From: Escherichia coli
Lineage (GTDB): Bacteria; Pseudomonadota; Gammaproteobacteria; Enterobacterales; Enterobacteriaceae
Reading direction: 5' to 3' (one strand)
Assembly: GCF_016903815.1 (NCBI RefSeq)
Contig: NZ_CP069973.1
DNA length: 64,000 nucleotides
Shown here: positions 50,028 through 60,790 of the stretch, piece by piece
Layout: each line of letters begins with the position of its first letter
Numbering within the stretch: the stretch's first letter is position 1
The notes under the pieces: generated by a model
Told to the model about the DNA's origin: nothing
Database searches by the model: none
Seen by the model: only the letters and a program-made list of their open reading frames with translations
Translations under genes and position numbers: made by a program

Positions 50028-50043
50028 CTGCAGGGGACACCAT
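50028..50043. repeat. att core repeat (copy of argW 3' end); right junction of prophage 1 and left junction of island 2
   Basis: 16-bp CTGCAGGGGACACCAT identical to argW positions 10820-10835. Confidence 0.8.
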
Positions 50044-50206
50044 CCCGCTGTACACCAACGTCTACCATTGTCTATAAATCCCATGTAAACATATAAAAAT
50101 AAAGAGATTTTATTCTCATGACGTCCATTTCCGTCTATTGAAATCAAGTAAATCTATGGGGCATAATTAGGGGCATTGCTGGTTCGATTGTATATGTGCC
50201 CCCAAC

Positions 50207-51493
50207 ATGTCCAGAAATACCCTCAACAAATTAACAGACCGTCAGTGCAAAGCAGCTAAGCCACGAGACAAAACTTATAAATTGTCTGATGGTGGTGGTC
50301 TTTATCTTGAAGTATCCCAGACCGGGTCGAAGTATTGGCGAATGAAGTATCGCCGCCCATCAGATAAGAAAGAAGACAGACTTGCTTTTGGTGTATATCC
50401 AACCATTAGCTTACAAGACGCCAGAGAAAAACGAGACAACGCCAAAAAGTTGTTAGTCAAGGGGATAGATCCCAAAGCAGAGCAAAGAGCAGCAAAAGCA
50501 GAAGAAAAAGGCGCATTCACTTTTGAGACAATAGGACGTCAATGGGTTGAAAGCCACCAGATGTGGAACGAAGACCACCGAAAACGCGTACTTAGAAGCC
50601 TTGAAATGTATATTTTCCCTCACATTGGCACTTCGGATATTCGCAAACTGGAGGCGATGACAATTTTACCTTTGTTTAAGAAGGTAGATGACGCCGGGAA
50701 ACACGATACAGCCAACCGACTTAAACAACGAGTTAAGGACATCATACATAGCGCCCGTCTGAGCGGCATTAAGACAGAAATCATCACGAATGATCTCGAT
50801 GTCCGGTTAATGCAATATGAAACTAAGCATCATGCCGCACTACATCCCAGAGATTTACCAGACTTTTTCACTCGATTGGGCAGCTTTAAAGGTAATCCTC
50901 TTACCCGCCTTGCCATTGAGCTAACCATGTTGACATTTGTTCGTTCAAGCGAGTTAAGGTTTGCCCGTTGGAAAGAGTTTGACCTTGATCGGGCTGAGTG
51001 GATTATCCCTAAAAAAAGAGAGCCTATCGATGGTGTGAGGTTTTCCACCCGTGGCACAAAAACGGGAAAAGACGAACATATCGTGCTTCTTAGCCGTCAG
51101 GCTGTTTCTATTGTAAAGCAGTTGAGAGAACTAAGCGGAAGCTACGATGTTGTGTTTCCGAATGAAAGAAACACCAAAGGCGTGATGAGTGAAAACACGG
51201 TAAACAAGGCATTACGCTTAATGGGCTATAACACGCAAGAGGACGTAACTGGACATGGATTCCGTGCCACAGCCTGTAGTTCCCTGATGGAGTCCGGTTT
51301 GTGGCAGGAGGACGCAGTAGAGCGCCAGATGAGCCACAAAGAATATAAAGACGTTAAAAGAGCCTACAAGCACAAGGCTGATTACTTAGAAGAGCGCAAA
51401 CTAATGCTTCAATGGTGGGCAGATTATCTGGACGCCAATCGAGAAATACATATAAGCCCTTACGAGTTCGGAAGGAGAACACGCCGTGACTAA
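50207..51493 (+). CDS. P4-family tyrosine integrase (second, distinct integrase)
   Basis: 428 aa; N-terminal MSRNTLNKLTDRQCKAAKPRDKTYKLSDGGGLYLEV... (P4-int arm-binding type) and C-terminal catalytic 'HGFRATA' region; sits next to the att repeat. Confidence 0.9.
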   Translation: MSRNTLNKLTDRQCKAAKPRDKTYKLSDGGGLYLEVSQTGSKYWRMKYRRPSDKKEDRLAFGVYPTISLQDAREKRDNAKKLLVKGIDPKAEQRAAKAEEKGAFTFETIGRQWVESHQMWNEDHRKRVLRSLEMYIFPHIGTSDIRKLEAMTILPLFKKVDDAGKHDTANRLKQRVKDIIHSARLSGIKTEIITNDLDVRLMQYETKHHAALHPRDLPDFFTRLGSFKGNPLTRLAIELTMLTFVRSSELRFARWKEFDLDRAEWIIPKKREPIDGVRFSTRGTKTGKDEHIVLLSRQAVSIVKQLRELSGSYDVVFPNERNTKGVMSENTVNKALRLMGYNTQEDVTGHGFRATACSSLMESGLWQEDAVERQMSHKEYKDVKRAYKHKADYLEERKLMLQWWADYLDANREIHISPYEFGRRTRRD

Positions 51494-52241
51494 GATGACA
51501 GGACTAGATGCGTTTTATAACGAGTCAGAAGATAAAATCTGGTTTGGTAATCTGATCAGCGAACTGGCAAGACTAAACAATGAAAATGAAAGAATGATCG
51601 CTGCCGCTATCTTAAGTAACTACAGATTGAGCAAAGCTAAACCAGATACTTTAGGGGGGCTGGGCTTTTATCAGTTCGATTGGGTATCAGGTTTTACAAC
51701 TAATGACGACTTTGAAAAGCAGTGTGTGGAGTTTTTAGGTCTTCTGGCTATGGGGCATGAATACAGGGAGAGCCCGATACCGGGGGAAGAAGGGACTTTC
51801 AACGTTAGGAAAGGGGAAGACTTTTTATATCACGATGATGAGGATGATTGGTATGGGTCTTACGATTCGTTTTATTTCAAGCGCTCCGAGGTTGTGAACT
51901 TCTTCCCAGAACTGGATATGAATGTTCCAGATAACGAACCAGAAATTGGAGCACTGTCAAAAAAAGTAGAAAGAGAACAAAACTGGAGAGGAAAAGATAC
52001 GGCTTTAAAGATGATCGCCGGAATGGCGATTGCCTTATTTGAATCAAGCAAAGATTTCCATAGTGGAGGAAACCTTAGTATCAATAGGGTTAGTGCCCAA
52101 GTAATAGAAAACAACATAATATTCGGGAACGATGAAGACAGCGATACCCACCCAGATACATTTCGGAGATTGCTAACGAACGCTTTGGATAAGTACGCCC
52201 CCAAATTTAAGAAAAAAGCAACCAAAAAGCGTCCAAAATAA
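51486..52241 (+). CDS. Hypothetical acidic protein, overlapping the integrase stop
   Basis: 251-aa ORF overlapping int2 by 8 bp; no recognised motifs. Confidence 0.45.
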   Translation: MTKMTGLDAFYNESEDKIWFGNLISELARLNNENERMIAAAILSNYRLSKAKPDTLGGLGFYQFDWVSGFTTNDDFEKQCVEFLGLLAMGHEYRESPIPGEEGTFNVRKGEDFLYHDDEDDWYGSYDSFYFKRSEVVNFFPELDMNVPDNEPEIGALSKKVEREQNWRGKDTALKMIAGMAIALFESSKDFHSGGNLSINRVSAQVIENNIIFGNDEDSDTHPDTFRRLLTNALDKYAPKFKKKATKKRPK

Positions 52242-52397
52242 AGGAAGGATGTTCCCAAATTGTGCGTTAGAACTAAAAAATAACGCCCAATTTGGGGTAA
52301 TTCTATTCCCAAAAATTTTTTCTCCAAATTCACAGAAAACTTAAAAAAACAATGATTTACTATCTCACATAGTCAAGCAACGTATTACGAGGTAGAT

Positions 52398-52589
52398 ATG
52401 AAAAAGTCGCTGATTCGGCTATCTGAGGTTTTGAAACGCACTGGCTATAGCAAGGCGTGGGTATATGCTCTGATGAGCCGAGGACAATTCCCCCAATCAG
52501 TCAAGATTGGTGCTCGCGCAATAGCTTTTATTGAAAGCGAGATCGATGACTGGATCGATCAACGTATAGCCGAATCGCGTAGTAACTAA
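52398..52589 (+). CDS. AlpA-family transcriptional regulator / excisionase (island 2)
   Basis: 63 aa; 'RLSEVLKRTGYSKAWVYALMSRGQFPQSVKIGARAIAFIESEIDDWI' resembles the AlpA HTH family. Confidence 0.65.
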   Translation: MKKSLIRLSEVLKRTGYSKAWVYALMSRGQFPQSVKIGARAIAFIESEIDDWIDQRIAESRSN

Positions 52590-52637
52590 AGAACAGAAAC
52601 AAACAGGATACAAACAATACGTTATTAGGTATTAAGA

Positions 52638-52829
52638 ATGCAGTTGAAACCTACCAATCAAAAGCTGAACGTAACCCATGTTGATTTTGAAACCTTCGCG
52701 GCACTGATTAGATCAGAGCCACAAAAGGTGAGCACCAGCACCTGGGTTTATGATGTGAAATCCACCAGCGGTGGAAAAGCTATCGGCATTGCCTCTGGCG
52801 ATGATTACTTAGTAATAGATCTGATTTAA
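52638..52829 (+). CDS. Hypothetical small protein
   Basis: 63-aa ORF; position only. Confidence 0.3.
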   Translation: MQLKPTNQKLNVTHVDFETFAALIRSEPQKVSTSTWVYDVKSTSGGKAIGIASGDDYLVIDLI

Positions 52830-52910
52830 TCGCACAAAAATTGTAGAGTAATTTGGGGAGACAGGAAGTCTCCTCCATATTACATTTTGGTACAACAGTA
52901 AGGGAATAAA

Positions 52911-53105
52911 ATGATTAATTACCTGACCGCTAAAGACGCAGCAGAATATCTTGGCGTCTGTCTGTCACGCTTCTATCAGTTAAAGCGATATATCCGAAGC
53001 TTTCCTCCCTATATAAATCAGACCATCAATGGACGCAAGCGCCGGGTGTGGCTTGCCTCCAGCCTTGATCAATTTGCCGACAGATTTCTGGGGGGACGAA
53101 AATGA
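52911..53105 (+). CDS. Small HTH DNA-binding protein
   Basis: 64 aa; 'LTAKDAAEYLGVCLSRFYQLKR' looks like an HTH; ATGA overlap with the next ORF. Confidence 0.4.
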   Translation: MINYLTAKDAAEYLGVCLSRFYQLKRYIRSFPPYINQTINGRKRRVWLASSLDQFADRFLGGRK

Positions 53106-53488
53106 GCACTCTTACACGCTCTCAGGTCGCCGCGAATATACGCGATATCCTACTAAGTGGCAGGAAGCTTACCCCAAAAGAGTTTGACGACATATTAAGG
53201 AAAGCCGGAAATCACGAACGTAGTCGCGTTTTAACGCTGTTACGCAACGATTGGGGAATTCCTGTTGAGCAGTTTAAAACAGAGGCGTATCACGTCACAG
53301 AACGCAATTTAGAAGCATACCACAGCGATAAAGACGAAACATTGAAGATCTGGAGGACGAACGCCAGATATGTAAAGACATTGCGTAAGGTAAACATAAC
53401 GTTGTCGTTGTTGCGTGGGCTGGTGGGTAAAGTGCCTGAAGACACGCTTAGAACTGTTTACAAGGGTATTGAAACCAAATACCTGTGA
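53102..53488 (+). CDS. Hypothetical protein
   Basis: 128-aa ORF coupled to the upstream HTH gene. Confidence 0.4.
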   Translation: MSTLTRSQVAANIRDILLSGRKLTPKEFDDILRKAGNHERSRVLTLLRNDWGIPVEQFKTEAYHVTERNLEAYHSDKDETLKIWRTNARYVKTLRKVNITLSLLRGLVGKVPEDTLRTVYKGIETKYL

Positions 53489-53556
53489 TTGACAAAGCAG
53501 AAAGCCGACTTTGCGAGAGTCGGCTTTGAAGCAATTGAAATATATGAACTTTACAC

Positions 53557-54609
53557 ATGGAATTATACGATAAAGACGCGAGTCTATCCACAAAATCACA
53601 AGCCGTAATCAATCACATCAATGGTCGCACATTAGCTTATGTGAGATCAGTTACGCACAAACGTAATGAATTAAAGGCGGAGAATAAACGCCAATCATCA
53701 AAGGCTAACCACTGCATACCACCAGCTTGGACAAAGAAGAAATGGCGTACAATGAGGCGAGCTTTGTTTACTCTGGATGTCGAATCAACTAGTGGTATCC
53801 CCTACTCCTTTACCTTCAGACCCGTTAAGGGAACAACGCCAGAGAAATTCAACAAAGCGTTAAAGGCACTTACCAGATGGTTGACTTCGAAAGGCAATCA
53901 GTGGGTTTACGTCATGGAGTGGGCTCAACACCAGTCAGAGCCGCATGTACACGCAATAATTATGGTGAACGAAAGAAGCATTAATGGGCAAGCAGGCAAA
54001 ATTGTCAGCAAATGGGTAACACTGGCAAACAATGCAATCCCATCAAATGTTCCTCCCCAGTGGGATCTAGATTTGAAAGGTCAGCAATATTCAGAGCCTA
54101 CAAGGTGTATAGGTAAACAGATTGATTACATGGCAAAACCCGAAACTAAGTTAAATGACTTTAATAGAGAGGCGAGCAAGAGCCTATATGATTGGTCAGA
54201 TGCCAACGTTTGGGGTTATTCGAATGGCTGGGCGCGGCATGAGATAAAAAAAGAAACACTTTCTATCACTGGCTTTCATGCTGTAAGACGCATACTAAAA
54301 GCCATTCAGGCATCAAGGAAAGACAACTACAAAGTTAAGCGACAGATACAGCGTACATTGAAACGACAAGACATAAATCGCTCACCAATCACCCCGTTCC
54401 AAGCACCGTTAATTAGCAAACACGATTGGGATTTATCAGTGATAGCGGTCACCAAAGAGGCAGAGACAGAGCGCAGGGAGTTACTATCCTCACAGACAAT
54501 AAACTCGAACAAAGTACAAACCCACCCGCTGTTAAGGATGTTAAGAAAAGCACGAGTGAGAGCATCCAGAGCCAGAAGAGAAAGCGGAGGTTATGACCAT
54601 TACTACTAG
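53557..54609 (+). CDS. Putative replication initiation protein (HUH-type Rep)
   Basis: 350 aa; candidate HUH motif 'PHVHAIIMV'; basic C-terminus; followed by GC-rich short repeats (54670-54730) in an AT-rich context. Confidence 0.5.
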   Translation: MELYDKDASLSTKSQAVINHINGRTLAYVRSVTHKRNELKAENKRQSSKANHCIPPAWTKKKWRTMRRALFTLDVESTSGIPYSFTFRPVKGTTPEKFNKALKALTRWLTSKGNQWVYVMEWAQHQSEPHVHAIIMVNERSINGQAGKIVSKWVTLANNAIPSNVPPQWDLDLKGQQYSEPTRCIGKQIDYMAKPETKLNDFNREASKSLYDWSDANVWGYSNGWARHEIKKETLSITGFHAVRRILKAIQASRKDNYKVKRQIQRTLKRQDINRSPITPFQAPLISKHDWDLSVIAVTKEAETERRELLSSQTINSNKVQTHPLLRMLRKARVRASRARRESGGYDHYY

Positions 54610-55407
54610 TAGTGACAGATCGTGACAAGGCAGAGCAAAAAACGACCAATATAAGAGAAATATCCCTGCCCAATCGCCAAAAGCGCGGAGCGCGGAGCGC
54701 GGCAAGCGCCGCGAGAGGCGCAAGAAGGCGAACCTATCCATTGAAACGGTCAGAAGAGCGCATCGCGCTCGATGACCGAAGTCCCCACTAACACCGTTAA
54801 CGAAAGATCAAAGTCTTAGAAAAAAATGACGTTTCTTTGAAGGGCTTCCATCCGTAAAAATCAAATTTTGAGATAAAGTACTTATAGAAATTAATCACTC
54901 TATAAGAGTGAGTTGACGTGAGTTTGAAGTGAGCAACATATTAAAAATATATATAATAATCAAACATATAATAACAACTACTGAGCAAAAATCACCAGAA
55001 AACAACGTCAACGTAACGTCACTCTGTAAGCACTTTTTCAGTCACTTTTTGGGTTGAATACACGTATAAATCCCCAACCATGAAATTTGAGCGCGTAAGC
55101 ACGACTCTGAAAGGCTTTTTATCTTTTAACCATTTAATATACCTGAGGTATTGAAGAAGATTCTGAGACATATACTAGAACTTTACCGTGCACGACTAAC
55201 AACATAAACGTTATATTTATATATAAATCAATGAGATAAATACATCCCCATCCAAAAAACAAGCATAACGCAAAATTGCGTTATCAACTTAAAAGGTACG
55301 ATTGAATCTGACAGTCTGCTCTGAGCGAAATGTGGGCACGTTCACCATAAGTCTCCAGATTGAAACGAAATGATAGTGTTAAATGTTCGATAGTTACTTT
55401 TCTAAGC

Positions 55408-56400
55408 TCAACGTTCGTAATAGTAATCCGACACCTCAGTAAAATCTATTTCCTCCCTAGAAAGTAATGATTCCATCTCATCTAGTTTATCGATTTGAGG
55501 CAAAACACTTGTTGGTGAAATCACAACATTAAAGTCCTCATTATATCGGTGACCTACCCTTGTGAGCTCTTTACCTAATTGCAACAATATATAATCACGT
55601 AAAATAAGTTGATTCCGTCTAAATCGAATAAGACGATAGTAATGGAAGAAATCAGAACATTTTGATGAATCATAATTTCTACCATTCCACCCGGTTTTCC
55701 TCGTAGCTCGGAATAATGCTTGCTCTTGCGTATTTTTCCAAATGCTAAAATCAAAGTGACTTTTCGGGTTAGGATTTTCGTATGTTGCTTGAGGATAAAA
55801 ATTAGTAACACCAAATTGATGCTTGTCAATGATCTTTAAAGTCCGATTTTGTTCAGACAACATCCGCCTTAAGGACCTAGGAATTTCGAAACGCATTAGT
55901 TTGTTTTTATCCAAGATTCTTAATTCTCTTGGAAGCATCTCATGATCCCGTTCTAAATATCTTTCACACCGTTTCGGCACATACTGAAAATACACTGAAA
56001 AAAAACAAAATATATTATCAGAAACGAGAGGAGTAATATGTATTTTTTCTTGCTCAGGAACGTTTTGAACAAAATAGTATGCCGTTCCTTGCCAAATCAA
56101 CGATTGCGCTACTGCCTCCACCAATTCACGTATTGTTTCATCTACCGAGTATTTCCTATATCTAGCTTGTAAATTTCCAAACATTTTACGTATGAGTTCT
56201 TCGTCGTTAGTTTCGACTTGAAACAAATTGGTATCACCGTGATTTACAAAATTAAAAACTCTAGCAAAATCCTCATAAAACATCCTTTGATAGAAACCTG
56301 GTCGTTCATTCTTAGACTTGGTCAATAGTCTATCAACAAAACTTAATTGCTCAGGATCGACGCTATAACCGTAAAGGGGTATATTCTTGATAATTTTCAT
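55408..56400 (-). CDS. Uncharacterised soluble protein, second gene of a candidate two-gene accessory (defence?) operon
   Basis: 330-aa ORF, ATG at 56400 with AGGA 7 nt upstream; ATGA overlap with the upstream gene stop; AT-rich; no family motif recognised by eye. Confidence 0.6.
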   Translation of the reverse strand: MKIIKNIPLYGYSVDPEQLSFVDRLLTKSKNERPGFYQRMFYEDFARVFNFVNHGDTNLFQVETNDEELIRKMFGNLQARYRKYSVDETIRELVEAVAQSLIWQGTAYYFVQNVPEQEKIHITPLVSDNIFCFFSVYFQYVPKRCERYLERDHEMLPRELRILDKNKLMRFEIPRSLRRMLSEQNRTLKIIDKHQFGVTNFYPQATYENPNPKSHFDFSIWKNTQEQALFRATRKTGWNGRNYDSSKCSDFFHYYRLIRFRRNQLILRDYILLQLGKELTRVGHRYNEDFNVVISPTSVLPQIDKLDEMESLLSREEIDFTEVSDYYYER

Positions 56401-58862
56401 TCAAAATCCTTATCGTATTCCACGCCAAAACGACGAGCCAACTCACTAACATGGTAATCGATCTTGAAGTCAATTTGCTCGAGTTGCGGGAAAATTTCGA
56501 GAGCACAAAAGAGATGCGATGCATCTGAATGGGAGTTTAAGAACTCTCTGACAACTTTGTTCGTATGAGATTTCCCTCGATTCATTCCCATTTGATCGCT
56601 AAAGCCATCATGTCTTGCGCGGCGCTCAAATTCCATTTTCCAGTTAAGACGAATCATATCTCTCGGTGATGCGCACAAGCTGAAATTGCGCGGATTTGAA
56701 AGAATCATCATTCTCTTCAAATACTGCTGTTTGTTGGGAACAGACTCGAGCCAAGACTTAAACCTATCAAGTACTGTTTTAGATAGTTTTGCATTATCGA
56801 AATAAGCACTGTAAAGGATAGCAAAACCTAGAACTGACATCAGATCGTTGATCGCGGATGAAAGGAGATGCAGTCGAAACTCGTTGTTTATATCGAGTTT
56901 CGGATCTACAAATTTGGTATCTGATGCCAGCAATGAGAGAACCATGAACATAGGGAATACCTTGCTCAGTTTATTTTCATCATTCTGTTCAAGCGCATGT
57001 ATACATTCCTCAGCCAACTCAAAATATATCTGTCCAAAATGATCCGGTAGTTCATCATCTTGCTCTTGTTCAATGATATGTCCCACAATTTCCACCCTAC
57101 CAAGAATAGCTATAGCTTCATCCTGTGTAACGACAAACTGTTTGAGCATTTCAGCAATATTAATTTCTGGTAATGCGTATAGCTTTTCAGAGTAGTGCTC
57201 GTACTTTCTGTATCTCTCCAAGAGCAGAGAAAGTTCATTAAACCAATGGGGAAACTTCAAATGATTATGTAGGCTAGCGAGAACGACTTGCGTTGCGGCT
57301 TCCGGCATCTTCATGTTTATCAGTGAGTTAACGAAATCTGGAACCATGTTTACGTGAAAATCGCATACTTCTGGCAGAATTTTAGAATATTGTTGTAATA
57401 ACTTCTGAACCGCCAACTGCTGGACGTACTTTGGTTTGGATAATCTCTGTCCTTCAATCTCTTTTTCGAATTCGATACGTTCTACGATAAAGGCCAACTC
57501 AACCTGCAGAAAAGCAGGCAAAGTGTGTAGAGAGGTCTCTGTCCAGATATCATCTTTAAAGAACTGCTCCAATTCTTTCTCAAAAGTAATCATGCGGCGT
57601 AACATTTCAAGGCAAAGATTGCTGCCTAATGCAGCCCATGCATCCGCAATTCCAACTTTTATCACCTTTTCCTCAAAATAATTAACGACATCAGACGGTG
57701 TAAAGGCTTTTTCAATGATCGTCTTCATTTTCCGAAGTTCACGTATACCAATATCGAACTGAAACTGTTGTGCATAAGTTAATATACGAGATGAGAATAG
57801 ACTGATGAGATCCAACCCGAGCTTGAAATCACCGGCTTTGAATGCAAGTTCAATATGGCCTACCAACCTATTGATAATTTCATTCTCTAACCAAAGATAA
57901 TTTGGTTCTTCTTCAACCGTTAATTGGCTCCTTGTTTTTAAAGCAATGGATGTTACACTGTCGCCAGCTAAGAACCATTGCTTATGTTTTATTCGTCTAG
58001 GGAACCAGTAACTTTGATAATCAATTCTGTGTTTCTGATTAAGGTAATGAAGAAGTAATGCCGAATAAACATTACTGAGAGCAGGTAAATTATCTCCGAG
58101 TCCTACTTTTTCACATATCAGGCGATCATCAATGTAGTTTAACTGCTCAAAGGCCAAATGTGCGGCTTTAGAGTGATGATTAGCTAAAGATACTGAATTC
58201 TTGGGATTAGACGCACCTTCGATGTGTCGTGCAATTCGTGGGAGTATTTCACTTCGGGCTAACTGATTTAGGTCAAAAAAATTGAATAATCTTTGACCTA
58301 ATGGGAACAGAGCTAAGGAACTAACAAGTGTCAGCAATGTTCCCATTGCATAAACGAAAAGACCGGGTTCAACCCCGAACAAGTGGAGAGCAGTTGCACT
58401 AAGACAAAACACCGCAGAAAGCACTAAAGTCCGCGAATACACATTACCTACCTGCTCGGTAGTAAGCATTTGTATAATATCTCGCCGAAGTCTGGTATAT
58501 CCTGTACTTAGAATGATACCTATTGTAGCAAAGTATATTGAAAATATAGCGGTAAGTATCTGTGCGTACAACCTAAGTTGATCAATATTAAATTTTTTTT
58601 CATCATAGCTAAGAGGATGAAGCAAAATCGTATTATTCCGAATATAATCTTCAACAAAACCCAGTGCAAATAACGTTAATATGACCCATAACAAATTTTT
58701 TAAACCTACCAACGCAAAAGACATAAAAACATGAGCGTTAGACTTAGCTTTAAAAACAGACGTACGATGTATGTATGACGCACGTTCTAAAATAAATCTA
58801 ACCCTCACAAGATCTGTTCTTAATTTCCAGAACCACTTTTGAGAAATAAGCCAAACCTTCAT
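56397..58862 (-). CDS. Uncharacterised large membrane-anchored protein (four N-terminal TM helices plus ~600-aa cytoplasmic domain), first gene of the candidate operon
   Basis: ORF 56397-58874 (TTG) with first ATG at 58862 (about 821 aa); hydrophobic segments VFMSFALVGLKNLLWVILTLFALGF, LYAQILTAIFSIYFATIGIILST, RTLVLSAVFCLSATALHLF, LFVYAMGTLLTLVSSLALFPL; no Walker A, HNH or other obvious motif found by eye. Confidence 0.6.
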   Translation of the reverse strand: MKVWLISQKWFWKLRTDLVRVRFILERASYIHRTSVFKAKSNAHVFMSFALVGLKNLLWVILTLFALGFVEDYIRNNTILLHPLSYDEKKFNIDQLRLYAQILTAIFSIYFATIGIILSTGYTRLRRDIIQMLTTEQVGNVYSRTLVLSAVFCLSATALHLFGVEPGLFVYAMGTLLTLVSSLALFPLGQRLFNFFDLNQLARSEILPRIARHIEGASNPKNSVSLANHHSKAAHLAFEQLNYIDDRLICEKVGLGDNLPALSNVYSALLLHYLNQKHRIDYQSYWFPRRIKHKQWFLAGDSVTSIALKTRSQLTVEEEPNYLWLENEIINRLVGHIELAFKAGDFKLGLDLISLFSSRILTYAQQFQFDIGIRELRKMKTIIEKAFTPSDVVNYFEEKVIKVGIADAWAALGSNLCLEMLRRMITFEKELEQFFKDDIWTETSLHTLPAFLQVELAFIVERIEFEKEIEGQRLSKPKYVQQLAVQKLLQQYSKILPEVCDFHVNMVPDFVNSLINMKMPEAATQVVLASLHNHLKFPHWFNELSLLLERYRKYEHYSEKLYALPEINIAEMLKQFVVTQDEAIAILGRVEIVGHIIEQEQDDELPDHFGQIYFELAEECIHALEQNDENKLSKVFPMFMVLSLLASDTKFVDPKLDINNEFRLHLLSSAINDLMSVLGFAILYSAYFDNAKLSKTVLDRFKSWLESVPNKQQYLKRMMILSNPRNFSLCASPRDMIRLNWKMEFERRARHDGFSDQMGMNRGKSHTNKVVREFLNSHSDASHLFCALEIFPQLEQIDFKIDYHVSELARRFGVEYDKDFE

Positions 58863-59087
58863 TATATCAATCAAGTGATACCTGCCTTCTCATCTCTACA
58901 TGCAACATAAAAATGCTTACTATGGTGGCAAACAAAATCAAGAATCATATGTTTGAACACTTTTTACGCACGAATTATCCGGTGTAAGATACTTATAGTC
59001 AAATGGCAGGGCTAATCTCATCTGTATTGAGCTATTAACAGCCATATGTAAGACTAAGAAACGCGCCCAGCAAAGGCGCGTTCTGCA

Positions 59088-59264
59088 TCAGGTAAGTTTG
59101 CTGGGGTCTACGGTTTCCATCCAATCTGGAGCAATTCCCAAACGTTCCGCTATCTCTTCGTTGGTCATGTCTTCAGTTGAGAAATTAGCCAGAGAATCGT
59201 TAACTTCAGGATAGTCAGGGGAGAGTAACAGGTATTCCCGCAACGCTTTCAGATCTTTTTCCAT
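59088..59264 (-). CDS. Small hypothetical protein with downstream terminator
   Basis: 58-aa ORF (MEKDLKALREYLLLSPDYPEVNDSLANFSTEDMTNEEIAERLGIAPDWMETVDPSKLT), not in the ORF track; followed on its strand by hairpin aacgcgcc/ggcgcgtt (59056-59086). Confidence 0.3.
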   Translation of the reverse strand: MEKDLKALREYLLLSPDYPEVNDSLANFSTEDMTNEEIAERLGIAPDWMETVDPSKLT

Positions 59265-59431
59265 TTTAACGCTCCTTGTTTATTGACAGTCGAACGATGG
59301 TGAAGATTCTTGCCATCTCAAGTACAGGCAAGAAAATCCACCAGAACACCAAATTATCTCATAAGGTTAAATCGGTGTCGGGCTATTTCTTTCGGCTAGG
59401 TGAGTGTACCGCCTTAACCACCGGCAATTAT

Positions 59432-59560
59432 CATTGTCTCAATTGGGTATACCGTAATGACAAGGTGATACAAAGTCTCAATAGGGTTGTATAGGAACAT
59501 TTTGACTACACAAAATGCATTATGTATCATTTGCACTTATATTCACAACCCTATTGAGAC
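59432..59560. promoter_or_regulatory. Putative recombination (res-like) site with perfect 16-bp inverted repeat upstream of the serine recombinase
   Basis: gtctcaatagggttgt (59475-59490) and acaaccctattgagac (59545-59560) are perfect reverse complements separated by 54 bp; a related half-site 'tgtctcaattggg' lies at ~59437-59449. Confidence 0.5.
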
Positions 59561-59566
59561 AATGCA

Positions 59567-60193
59567 ATGAACGTTAGAATTTACTGCCGAGCATCAACTG
59601 AGGGGCAACACGCTGATCGAGCACTTACCAGCCTACGTGAATTTTCAAAATCAAAAGGCTGGCAGATTGCAGGAGAGTATATAGAAAATGCTAGCGGGGC
59701 GAAGCTTGAGCGCGTAGAGCTTATGCGGCTATTGTCTGAAGCCCAGTCCGGCGATCTGTTGCTAGTGGAAGCTATAGATCGTCTGAGTCGCCTAGAACAT
59801 AGCGCATGGGTCGAACTGAAAGATACGCTCAACCGAAAAGGGTTAATCATCGTATCAATGGATTTACCAACGAGCTGGCAGATGGTCGAGATGGCAGGCA
59901 ATGACCTAACCAGCGGCATCCTGAGAGCCGTAAATGCCATGTTGATTGATATCCTTGCCACAATGGCACGGCAGGATTACGAAACACGTCGTAAACGCCA
60001 ACAGCAAGGCATTGAGCGAGCTAAAAGCGAAGGAATATACATTGGCAGGGAGAAAAATCAGGAAGCCCGAGAGATCGTTAGAGAGATGTTGGAGCAAGGA
60101 GTAAAACCTGAACTCATCATGAAGGCAGCAGGAATCAGCCGAGCGACTTACTACCGTATAAAAAGTGAGCTGTCAGTCGTAAAATCAGAATAA
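59567..60193 (+). CDS. Serine recombinase (resolvase/invertase family)
   Basis: 208 aa; N-terminal catalytic region 'VRIYCRASTEGQ' with the nucleophilic Ser; C-terminal HTH 'ISRATYYRIK'. Confidence 0.85.
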   Translation: MNVRIYCRASTEGQHADRALTSLREFSKSKGWQIAGEYIENASGAKLERVELMRLLSEAQSGDLLLVEAIDRLSRLEHSAWVELKDTLNRKGLIIVSMDLPTSWQMVEMAGNDLTSGILRAVNAMLIDILATMARQDYETRRKRQQQGIERAKSEGIYIGREKNQEAREIVREMLEQGVKPELIMKAAGISRATYYRIKSELSVVKSE

Positions 60194-60327
60194 CCTTTGA
60201 AAGGTCGTCAGGCTTGTTTCATCTGCTAAAAGCCAGCATTTCTGACCATAATACCTGGGGGCACCTACTGGGGCACCCACCAAAATCGAAAGACAAATAA
60301 GTTATAATTCAATCTGTTAGTTTACTT

Positions 60328-60350
60328 TTCGATTCCTGCAGGGGACACCA
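60328..60350. repeat. att core repeat (third copy of argW 3' end); distal junction of island 2
   Basis: 23-bp TTCGATTCCTGCAGGGGACACCA identical to argW positions 10812-10834. Confidence 0.8.
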
Positions 60351-60790
60351 GATACCCTTCAAACCAAATCTACCTTCACCCCGTAAAAGATGGGTTTGGC
60401 GCACACTAGCCCTATATCTACTCATTTTTACTGCAACAGGTTGAAATCTCAGCACTGTCAGAAAGCGCTGATGACTAAACAGCCCTGGGCCGGGCGATGT
60501 AACCATCATACAGAATCCTGATAGCGAAATATGGCGTGACTCGATACTTCACTCTGCAATGCATTCCTTGATGAATTCGCAGGCCCGTGATACTCGGGAC
60601 AGGTCGCTGAATGACGACAATGTCCTGGAAATCAGCGAACCGCGTATCCGGAGTACATTTGAGCGACTGTACCAGAACATGAATGAGGCGTTTGGATTAG
60701 GTGATTATTAGTTGGGCTAAGCATTTTTGTATTATTATTTTCCGGTTGAGGGATATGGAGATATCGACAACAACCGGAAAAAGTTTACGT

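Follow-up and report, generated by a model that had tools for sequence, protein, structure and literature searches.

The ParA resolvase of RP4/RK2 resolves plasmid multimers at a multi-site recombination site (res) next to its operon, and the res of Sin consists of two subsites with a DNA-bending protein bound between them, the half-sites of site II being direct repeats. Res sites of the Tn3 type occupy about 120 base pairs (bp) upstream of the resolvase gene, hold three dyad-symmetric subsites with the promoter inside, and have the centres of sites I and II an integral 4-7 helical turns apart (PMC12217951). A Tn3-like res/resolvase system was demonstrated to remove multimers of the integrative mobilizable island SGI1 (Veress, Szabo & Kiss 2025, PMC12217951). 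The present analysis concerns a gene for a small serine recombinase, and the inverted repeat preceding it, in a stretch of 64,000 nucleotides (nt) of the Escherichia coli chromosome (assembly GCF_016903815.1, contig NZ_CP069973.1), referred to below as the window. The first-pass annotation had drawn attention to this repeat and had offered two readings: a multi-subsite res, or the boundaries of a small invertible segment. From comparison of sequences and by analogy with known systems, the repeat is probably part of a three-subsite res of about 127 bp (59435-59561) belonging to the adjacent downstream resolvase and serving both the resolution of multimers or tandem copies and autoregulation. 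The features concerned are the following (coordinates in the window; I-L, I-R and so forth denote the left and right half-sites of the predicted subsites):

59435-59464, plus strand: res site I, where crossover presumably takes place, composed of the adjoining 15-nt half-sites TGTCTCAATTGGGTA and TACCGTAATGACAAG
59446-59453, plus strand: palindromic core of site I, GGTATACC, with the centre AT at 59449/59450
59474-59510, plus strand: predicted res site II, with left half AGTCTCAATAGGGTT (59474-59488), a spacer of 5-7 nt and a degenerate right half (59494/6-59508/10)
59475-59490, plus strand: left repeat arm, 14 nt of half-site II-L and 2 nt of spacer
59502-59530, plus strand: predicted sigma-70 promoter of the recombinase gene, TTGACT-17-TATCAT, 10/12 matches
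59523-59561, plus strand: predicted res site III, 39 bp (15+9+15), with left half TGTATCATTTGCACT and right half AACCCTATTGAGACA (59547-59561)
59545-59560, minus strand: right repeat arm, 2 nt of spacer and 14 nt of half-site III-R
59567-60193, plus strand: gene for the small serine recombinase, resolvase-type, 208 amino acids (aa), PF00239, ATG start

The protein matches the Pfam family Resolvase at 7.8e-23 over residues 5-156, and its closest relatives in the PDB are Sin/Bin3 (2r0q; 1.5e-15) and gamma-delta resolvase (3e-10), both aligned over residues 6-201. A match to HTH_7 over residues 169-201 is weak (0.0049); the Sin and gamma-delta alignments extend through the helix-turn-helix (HTH) to residue 201. 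Residue S10 aligns on the catalytic serine, and Y6, R8, Q14, D71, R72 and R75 are all present. All the marks of a small serine recombinase are there: the catalytic serine with its Arg/Asp cluster, the C-terminal HTH, and a length within about 180-210 aa. Over 98% of its length the protein shares 35% identity with the product of a plasmid gene annotated 'parA: plasmid stabilization protein, resolvase'. A recombinase inactivated by mutation of the catalytic serine, which had been named as a possibility, is not what we find: S10 is in place and the gene is intact, as are the proteins of seven other E. coli alleles. Against the most divergent of these (strain D10) we count a synonymous divergence (dS) of 0.285 and a non-synonymous divergence (dN) of 0.011 (dN/dS about 0.04); the gene is under strong purifying selection. 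A PADLOC scan of the recombinase gave noise only.

The perfect repeat with its 54-bp separation was readily recovered: the left arm, GTCTCAATAGGGTTGT at 59475-59490, recurs as its exact reverse complement at 59545-59560, with a loop of 54 nt. A third related half-site further upstream, also part of the earlier description, proved equally real: it is a 17-nt copy at 59432-59448, 94% complementary to 59548-59564, and corresponds to the left half of site I, with 13/15 matches to the consensus of the half-sites. The 64 kb hold no other perfect inverted repeat of at least 14 nt with a loop of at most 100 nt, and the 16-mer occurs three times in the window at up to three mismatches (0.46 expected). 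That the repeat might be a matter of chance, or a transcription terminator or RNA hairpin unconnected with the recombinase, has the mere existence of two complementary arms in its favour. Not one of 200 dinucleotide-preserving shuffles of the window reproduced a 16-nt inverted repeat (the mean for 14 nt was 0.03), and the motif recurs as the third copy and in homologous loci. Since the left arm lies upstream of the promoter, the arms are not both on the recombinase transcript and no hairpin would form in its mRNA; neither a run of T nor an Rfam family speaks for a terminator or RNA, the Rfam search of the region having returned no credible family and only chance-level eukaryotic matches (E >=0.04). 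The probability of such an origin we consider close to nil. The perfection of the repeat depends on the lineage: the right arm of the O157:H7-type allele carries a single mismatch, and in strain D10 the left arm is altered at its last two bases. Judged by their place among the half-sites, the two arms are not partners: the left arm is the left half of site II, whereas the right arm is the right half of site III.

The upstream regions were compared among nine sequence classes of homologues with 58-100% protein identity, to which we added the homologue of plasmid pWW0 (48%). Besides the E. coli alleles these comprise homologues of 82% on Enterobacter IncFIB plasmids, on a 10.8-kb plasmid and on the Klebsiella aerogenes chromosome; homologues of 67% in Pectobacterium and in a further E. 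coli island, this one at a tRNA-Leu gene; and more distant ones in Pantoea (63%), on a 5.8-kb Erwinia plasmid (61%) and in Salmonella (58%). Six predicted half-sites form three inverted pairs whose positions are conserved across the nine classes, and the 15-nt consensus of all three subsites is TGTCTCAATAGGGTT. The core GGTATACC stands 115-131 nt before the ATG in all nine classes (with one mismatch in the Erwinia locus, L012), between inverted arms that start with TGTC; in pWW0 the core stands 157 nt before the ATG, and GGGTATACC has inverted arms there as well. A gap of 9 bp separates sites I and II in 8/9 classes. Site II of the homologues is a strong plus-strand half-site, a spacer of 5-7 nt and an inverted half-site; in the plasmid and Klebsiella relatives II-R is a good inverted copy, AACTCTATTGACAA. 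The gap from site II to site III measures 12-15 bp in 7/9 classes. Site III then follows as a plus-strand half-site, a 9-nt spacer and an inverted half-site, ending 2-7 nt before the ATG in 8/9 classes; the 15+9+15 arrangement is also seen in loci L016, L020 and L022, with TGTATCATATGGGTA or a similar sequence as the left half. Column conservation over the nine classes falls from 0.80 in the half-sites to 0.53 in the DNA between them (gaps and spacers) and to 0.41 in the DNA preceding site I.

Because subsite positions, spacing and half-site sequence are thus conserved across nine homologue classes, we read the region as a three-subsite res; of the two readings first offered, the multi-subsite res is supported and the small invertible segment is not. 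In the window, the res ends 5 nt before the ATG, with subsites of 30, 35-37 and 39 bp and gaps of 9 and 12-14 bp. The best-preserved half-sites relative to the consensus are II-L (14/15) and III-R (15/15, on the minus strand), while the arms of site I score 13/15 (left) and 9/15 (right). The centres of sites I and II (59449.5 and about 59491-59492) are 41.5-42.5 bp apart, or about 4.0 helical turns, and the res fits the Tn3-type description in its length, its position, its three subsites of inverted halves and this centre distance. Among E. coli alleles the res varies mainly in gaps and spacers (59469, 59489-59491, 59515, 59519 and 59540).

The 54 bp between the repeat arms contain the predicted promoter of the recombinase gene, oriented with that gene and giving the joint-best promoter score within 58900-60400. 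Its -35 hexamer is overlapped by the right half of site II and its -10 hexamer by the left half of site III, while III-R overlaps the 5' untranslated region (UTR) and presumed ribosome-binding site of the recombinase gene; the homologue alignment shows TTGAC and GTATC to be conserved. Because sites II and III overlap the -35, the -10 and the 5' UTR, autorepression would be expected. The same overlap is what one would see if the sites were kept for transcriptional regulation alone and the protein were a domesticated regulator that no longer recombines DNA. A lone operator would also agree with a second res being found in no genome, with several degenerate half-sites, and with the right arm of the E. 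coli site I being shifted by 2 bp. However, the catalytic residues are all kept, and the low dN/dS (about 0.04) extends across the protein, catalytic domain included; moreover, about 50 bp separate site I from the -35 further downstream; a role as an operator is not obvious at that position, yet no other element is conserved as well across genera. We therefore regard a purely regulatory function as unlikely.

A second matching site elsewhere in the genome had been proposed as something to look for: each genome has one res, without a second crossover site, and a single site I-type sequence is present in the window and in every related locus. A half-site-like sequence, AGTATCAATAGGGT, at 52077-52090 lies without a partner inside an open reading frame (ORF) of 251 aa; we judged it to be due to chance, and it occurs only in the variants sharing that ORF allele (the window, L001 and L008).

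An invertible promoter switch, in which the recombinase flips the 54-bp segment or 59432-59564 and so toggles its own or neighbouring genes, would account for a perfect inverted repeat with promoter-like sequence between its arms, and relatives of the protein do carry generic invertase names (phrog_125, at 1.6e-40, and 'DNA invertase' in JGI names). A query with 59475-59560 inverted in place was run alongside the native query against 5426 complete E. coli genomes. The native query found 547/547 matches at >=90% identity, whereas the inverted query gave 80-90% identity in 546 of 547 matches, including all 545 of full length, the remaining one being partial. Identities of 80-90% mean that the alignments run through a mismatched spacer, and therefore that no assembly is inverted: neither the 54-bp spacer nor the segment 59432-59564 is found inverted in any of the 545 full-length copies. 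The search for both orientations suggested at the outset, made here in complete assemblies, thus yielded one, and the spacer envisaged as a phase-variable promoter holds the predicted promoter of the recombinase itself, in gene orientation. Further points tell against a switch. Its arms come from different subsites, and the palindromic-core, crossover-type sequence (site I) is single-copy; the 82%-identical plasmid homologues (L010 and L011) lack the right arm and keep sites I and II and the promoter; and every NCBIfam match of the protein (Mpi invertase, IS607, XisF, YneB) falls far below cut-off, the Mpi invertase model scoring 37.9 bits against a cut-off of 272. Synapsis by serine recombinases, as known from Hin/Gin systems, requires a loop that 54 bp of DNA are far too short to form; neither the two inverted crossover sites nor, among the 545 full-length genome copies, the two orientations that mark such systems are seen here. 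We rejected the switch as very improbable. An effect on the divergent small ORF or on the operon further upstream, as also suggested, found no support: the predicted minus-strand promoter (59381-59353) is situated 54 bp outside site I.

The window includes the tRNA-Arg(CCT) gene argW (10760-10834), the 3' end of which is repeated twice further on: as a shorter copy at 50028-50042, between a prophage and a small element, and in full downstream of the recombinase gene, before the csc sucrose genes that begin after 60.7 kb. From the core copies at 10812-10834, 50028-50042 and 60328-60350 it follows that two elements are integrated in tandem at argW. The first is a lambdoid/P22-like prophage of about 39 kb (ca. 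10.8-50.0 kb; RecT, Kil, Ral, CII/Cro and a TorI-like excisionase). The second, which carries the resolvase, adjoins argW directly in strains without the prophage, and consists of:

50043-60350, plus strand: argW-integrated element of about 10.3 kb, with res and resolvase last
50207-51493: P4-type tyrosine integrase, followed by the 251-aa ORF
52398-52589: AlpA-like excisionase, followed by small ORFs
53557-54609: HUH-type Rep of 350 aa, with a weak REP_ORF2-G2P Pfam match (1.5e-6); rolling-circle replication protein in RefSeq
55125-59056, minus strand: variable cargo slot, here with genes of 330 and 825 aa without recognisable domains
59088-59264, minus strand: divergent acidic ORF of 58 aa between cargo and res, annotated in RefSeq records
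60328-60350, plus strand: attR, repeat of the argW 3' end, TTCGATTCCTGCAGGGGACACCA, identical to 10812-10834 within tRNA-Arg(CCT)

The placement at an island edge is hereby borne out, attR beginning 135 nt past the recombinase stop codon. A recombinase region of 1.3 kb is present in 549/5426 complete E. coli genomes, O157:H7 included, always on the chromosome and nearly always in single copy. The literature library that was searched yielded no account of this argW element, nor of the homologue in the pWW0 backbone.

Since the element has its own tyrosine integrase and an AlpA-like excisionase, a serine enzyme is not needed for integration, and the resolution of multimers or tandem copies is therefore the best-supported role for the resolvase. 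If Tn3/gamma-delta, RP4 ParA and SGI1 Res are a guide, dimers of the resolvase would bind the six 15-nt half-sites. In a molecule carrying two directly repeated res, sites II and III, the accessory ones, would pair and wrap; the dimers bound at site I would cut at the central AT/TA of GGTATACC, exchange strands, and delete the intervening DNA. Likely substrates would be dimeric or multimeric forms of the excised circle replicated by Rep, or else tandem copies at argW, and the outcome would be monomers or single copies of the 10-kb element. The same binding at sites II and III would repress the recombinase's own promoter. Binding, the position of the crossover, resolution activity and autoregulation are all features that we infer from the analogy, and a replicating circular form of the element is plausible from its gene content.

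Several observations weigh against the res and resolvase as here interpreted. Three of the six half-sites are weak in the lineage of the window (I-R 9/15, II-R 8/15 and III-L 9/15), and the outer TGTC of the right arm of site I is 2 bp nearer the centre than in relatives, so that site I is either an asymmetric site of 30 bp or one of 28 bp (59435-59462) with a different centre. The Tn3/gamma-delta subsites measure 28, 34 and 25 bp with gaps of 22 and 5 bp, unlike those of the window; from the unlike sizes and spacing we conclude that this res probably works in the Tn3 manner but is no member of the Tn3/gamma-delta res lineage. Furthermore, excision, replication and multimer formation of the element are assumed, the Rep call being a weak Pfam match. 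Rolling-circle replicons end as monomers, and the need for a resolvase is less obvious for them than for theta plasmids.

The site I side of the res faces the cargo slot in all eight E. coli variants. Homology to six other E. coli elements ends at 55072-55124 on the left and restarts at 59057-59416 on the right; the backbone from 50028 to 55124 is 93-98% identical among strains, and the content of the slot is replaced wholesale. At least seven gene sets occupy it. Apart from the pair in the window, they include a 470-aa protein (O157:H7 type); an HNH endonuclease; a ParA-like protein; a GTPase with a hypothetical protein; proteins of 228 and 314 aa; and GapS6a with a PIN protein and a hypothetical protein, this being the one set with a named defence gene. 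The genes of 330 and 825 aa (55408-58874, minus strand) overlap stop to start and are found in 147/5426 E. coli genomes at >=99% identity; neither has a match in Pfam, NCBIfam, PADLOC or PHROG, and their sole distant plasmid relatives (about 23% identity) are in Paenibacillus and Burkholderia. Since the slot elsewhere holds different gene sets, one of them with GapS6a, the two genes are reasonable candidates for an uncharacterised defence system.

Besides or instead of resolving multimers, crossover at site I (59449/50) might swap defence-type cargo between islands and plasmids. In line with this, the slot lies beside site I, and cargo and resolvase alleles reassort: loci L002 and L004 share the same cargo and left intergenic region (2 mismatches in 388 bp) and differ at 31 positions in the resolvase gene, and the window, L006 and L008 have a near-identical resolvase gene (dS 0.007) with three different cargoes. 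In three pairs (L002-L005, window-L006 and window-L008) the mismatch falls from 20-70% to less than 1.5% at 59433-59436, the left edge of site I. Homologues in Salmonella and Klebsiella adjoin defence-like genes (AAA_13, EcoRII, AbiTii and DUF4145), and small serine recombinases are reported in a 2025 preprint (PMC12632615) to be linked with defence genes in general, in a way that is mechanistically unexplained. However, homologous recombination in the conserved flanks equally predicts sharp boundaries and reassortment. The junction between L004 and L007 lies at 59332-59337, outside the res, and the left junction at 55124 is without a res-like site. In D10 the dS of the gene (0.285) roughly matches the divergence of the left intergenic region, and constraint alone explains the step there; we hence retained the divergence steps at site I as a suggestive observation and not as proof that exchange is site-specific. 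Resolvases with accessory sites, moreover, disfavour intermolecular recombination. Exchange of cargo at site I appears to us a rather doubtful addition to, or substitute for, the resolution of multimers, though less so than a purely regulatory role. Near the left cargo junction the window has TATACCTGA (at 55140), which resembles the right arm of site I in relatives; the idea of cassette integration with a second res-like site there was dropped, as the six other loci are unrelated at that point and have no res-like site.

Some further observations concern the recombinase gene and its homologues. In strain D10 (locus L003, 12511-15019) the C-terminal end of the recombinase differs (214 aa) and is followed by an extra minus-strand gene of 264 aa and by a 5'-truncated second copy of the recombinase gene (corresponding to window 59907-60500, 90% identical); the arrangement resembles the scar of recombination between tandem members of the family, with the junction in the gene and not in the res. 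Over 60161-60350, that is the last 30 nt or so of the gene and the 157 nt up to attR, there are two allele types about 15% apart (window, L006 and L008 versus L002, L004, L005 and L007), whereas in the body of the gene the difference is only 0.2-3.5%; on the right, too, the resolvase block is thus a mosaic. In strain AR_0137 (NZ_CP021879.1) an IS903B is inserted in the 1.3-kb region homologous to window 59000-60300. The 82% homologue of Klebsiella aerogenes (L016, 3692-15912) resides in an island that starts with a large serine recombinase of 638 aa and in which DUF4145, GIY-YIG and AbiTii genes flank a second small resolvase (183 aa), one more instance of defence-like genes beside small resolvases.

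Other observations concern the rest of the element and its surroundings. The 58-aa ORF is kept in four other variants with 80-84% nucleotide identity and a dN/dS of about 0.35, and has no match in Pfam, NCBIfam, PADLOC or PHROG; it is followed by a terminator-like hairpin (59083-59059), and in other variants it is absent or swapped for an unrelated small ORF. In the diverged intergenic part between its start and the res there is an imperfect 17-nt inverted repeat (59298-59343; TGGTGAAGATTCTTGCC and GGCAAGAAAATCCACCA, with a 12-nt loop). After the Rep gene, about 515 bp of non-coding DNA (54610-55124) are conserved in all variants up to the left cargo junction; they include a GC-rich tract at 54681-54720 made of repeats of the GCGCGGAGCGCGGAGCGCGG type, as well as an AT-rich one, and are a plausible replication origin. 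Between attR and cscB, RefSeq lists a short fragment with a DUF4942 domain (60529-60711), probably the remnant of an older island, and in strains without csc (L005 and L008) dsdC comes directly after attR.

As a resolvase with its res, the locus is an ordinary module of a known kind in a tRNA-integrated island, and in this respect adds little. Our comparison nevertheless defines, from sequence alone, the probable res anatomy of an uncharacterised resolvase clade that is widespread on the islands and plasmids of enterobacteria, and identifies its owner here as a compact 10-kb argW element with a cargo slot beside site I. It also provides, in E. coli, a tractable case for the question why defence genes are found beside small serine recombinases; exchange of cargo at site I, if true, would supply a mechanism for that linkage (PMC12632615).

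Of the systems with which the locus can be compared, the Hin/Gin/Pin invertases belong to the same protein superfamily, and relatives receive the generic label 'DNA invertase' in databases, but the window has no inverted pair of crossover sites, no workable invertible segment, and no polymorphism of orientation among the 545 genome copies. Sin/Bin3 (Tn552 and staphylococcal plasmids) is the best relative of solved structure, and likewise a resolvase that acts with a site I and an accessory site; unlike Sin, the window has three subsites, all with inverted halves, and only 9 bp between sites I and II. RP4/RK2 ParA is the best match with a functional annotation, its 35% identity being low and the likeness known from protein comparison alone; ParA is part of the plasmid operon parCBA, whereas the resolvase of the window is found on a chromosomal island. 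With Tn3/gamma-delta the locus has in common that site I is furthest from the gene, that the half-sites start with TGTC, that the central dinucleotide of the presumed crossover site is AT/TA and that the promoter is inside the res; in the protein only the domain architecture and the catalytic residues are clearly common (phmmer E about 1e-10), and the module lacks a transposase and terminal inverted repeats, being instead part of a tRNA-integrated island with a tyrosine integrase. SGI1 Res groups with the Tn3-family enzymes and its res measures 107 bp (28/30/25) (PMC12217951); its cargo In104 came by res-hunting transposition, with 5-bp duplications and inactivation of the res, whereas the res of the window is intact and its cargo junctions are without transposon ends. 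In other respects SGI1 offers a close likeness: in both cases a resolvase with an upstream three-box res is part of the backbone of an integrative, excisable and replicating island (excision and replication being, for the argW element, what we infer), and in both the variable cargo lies directly upstream of the res.

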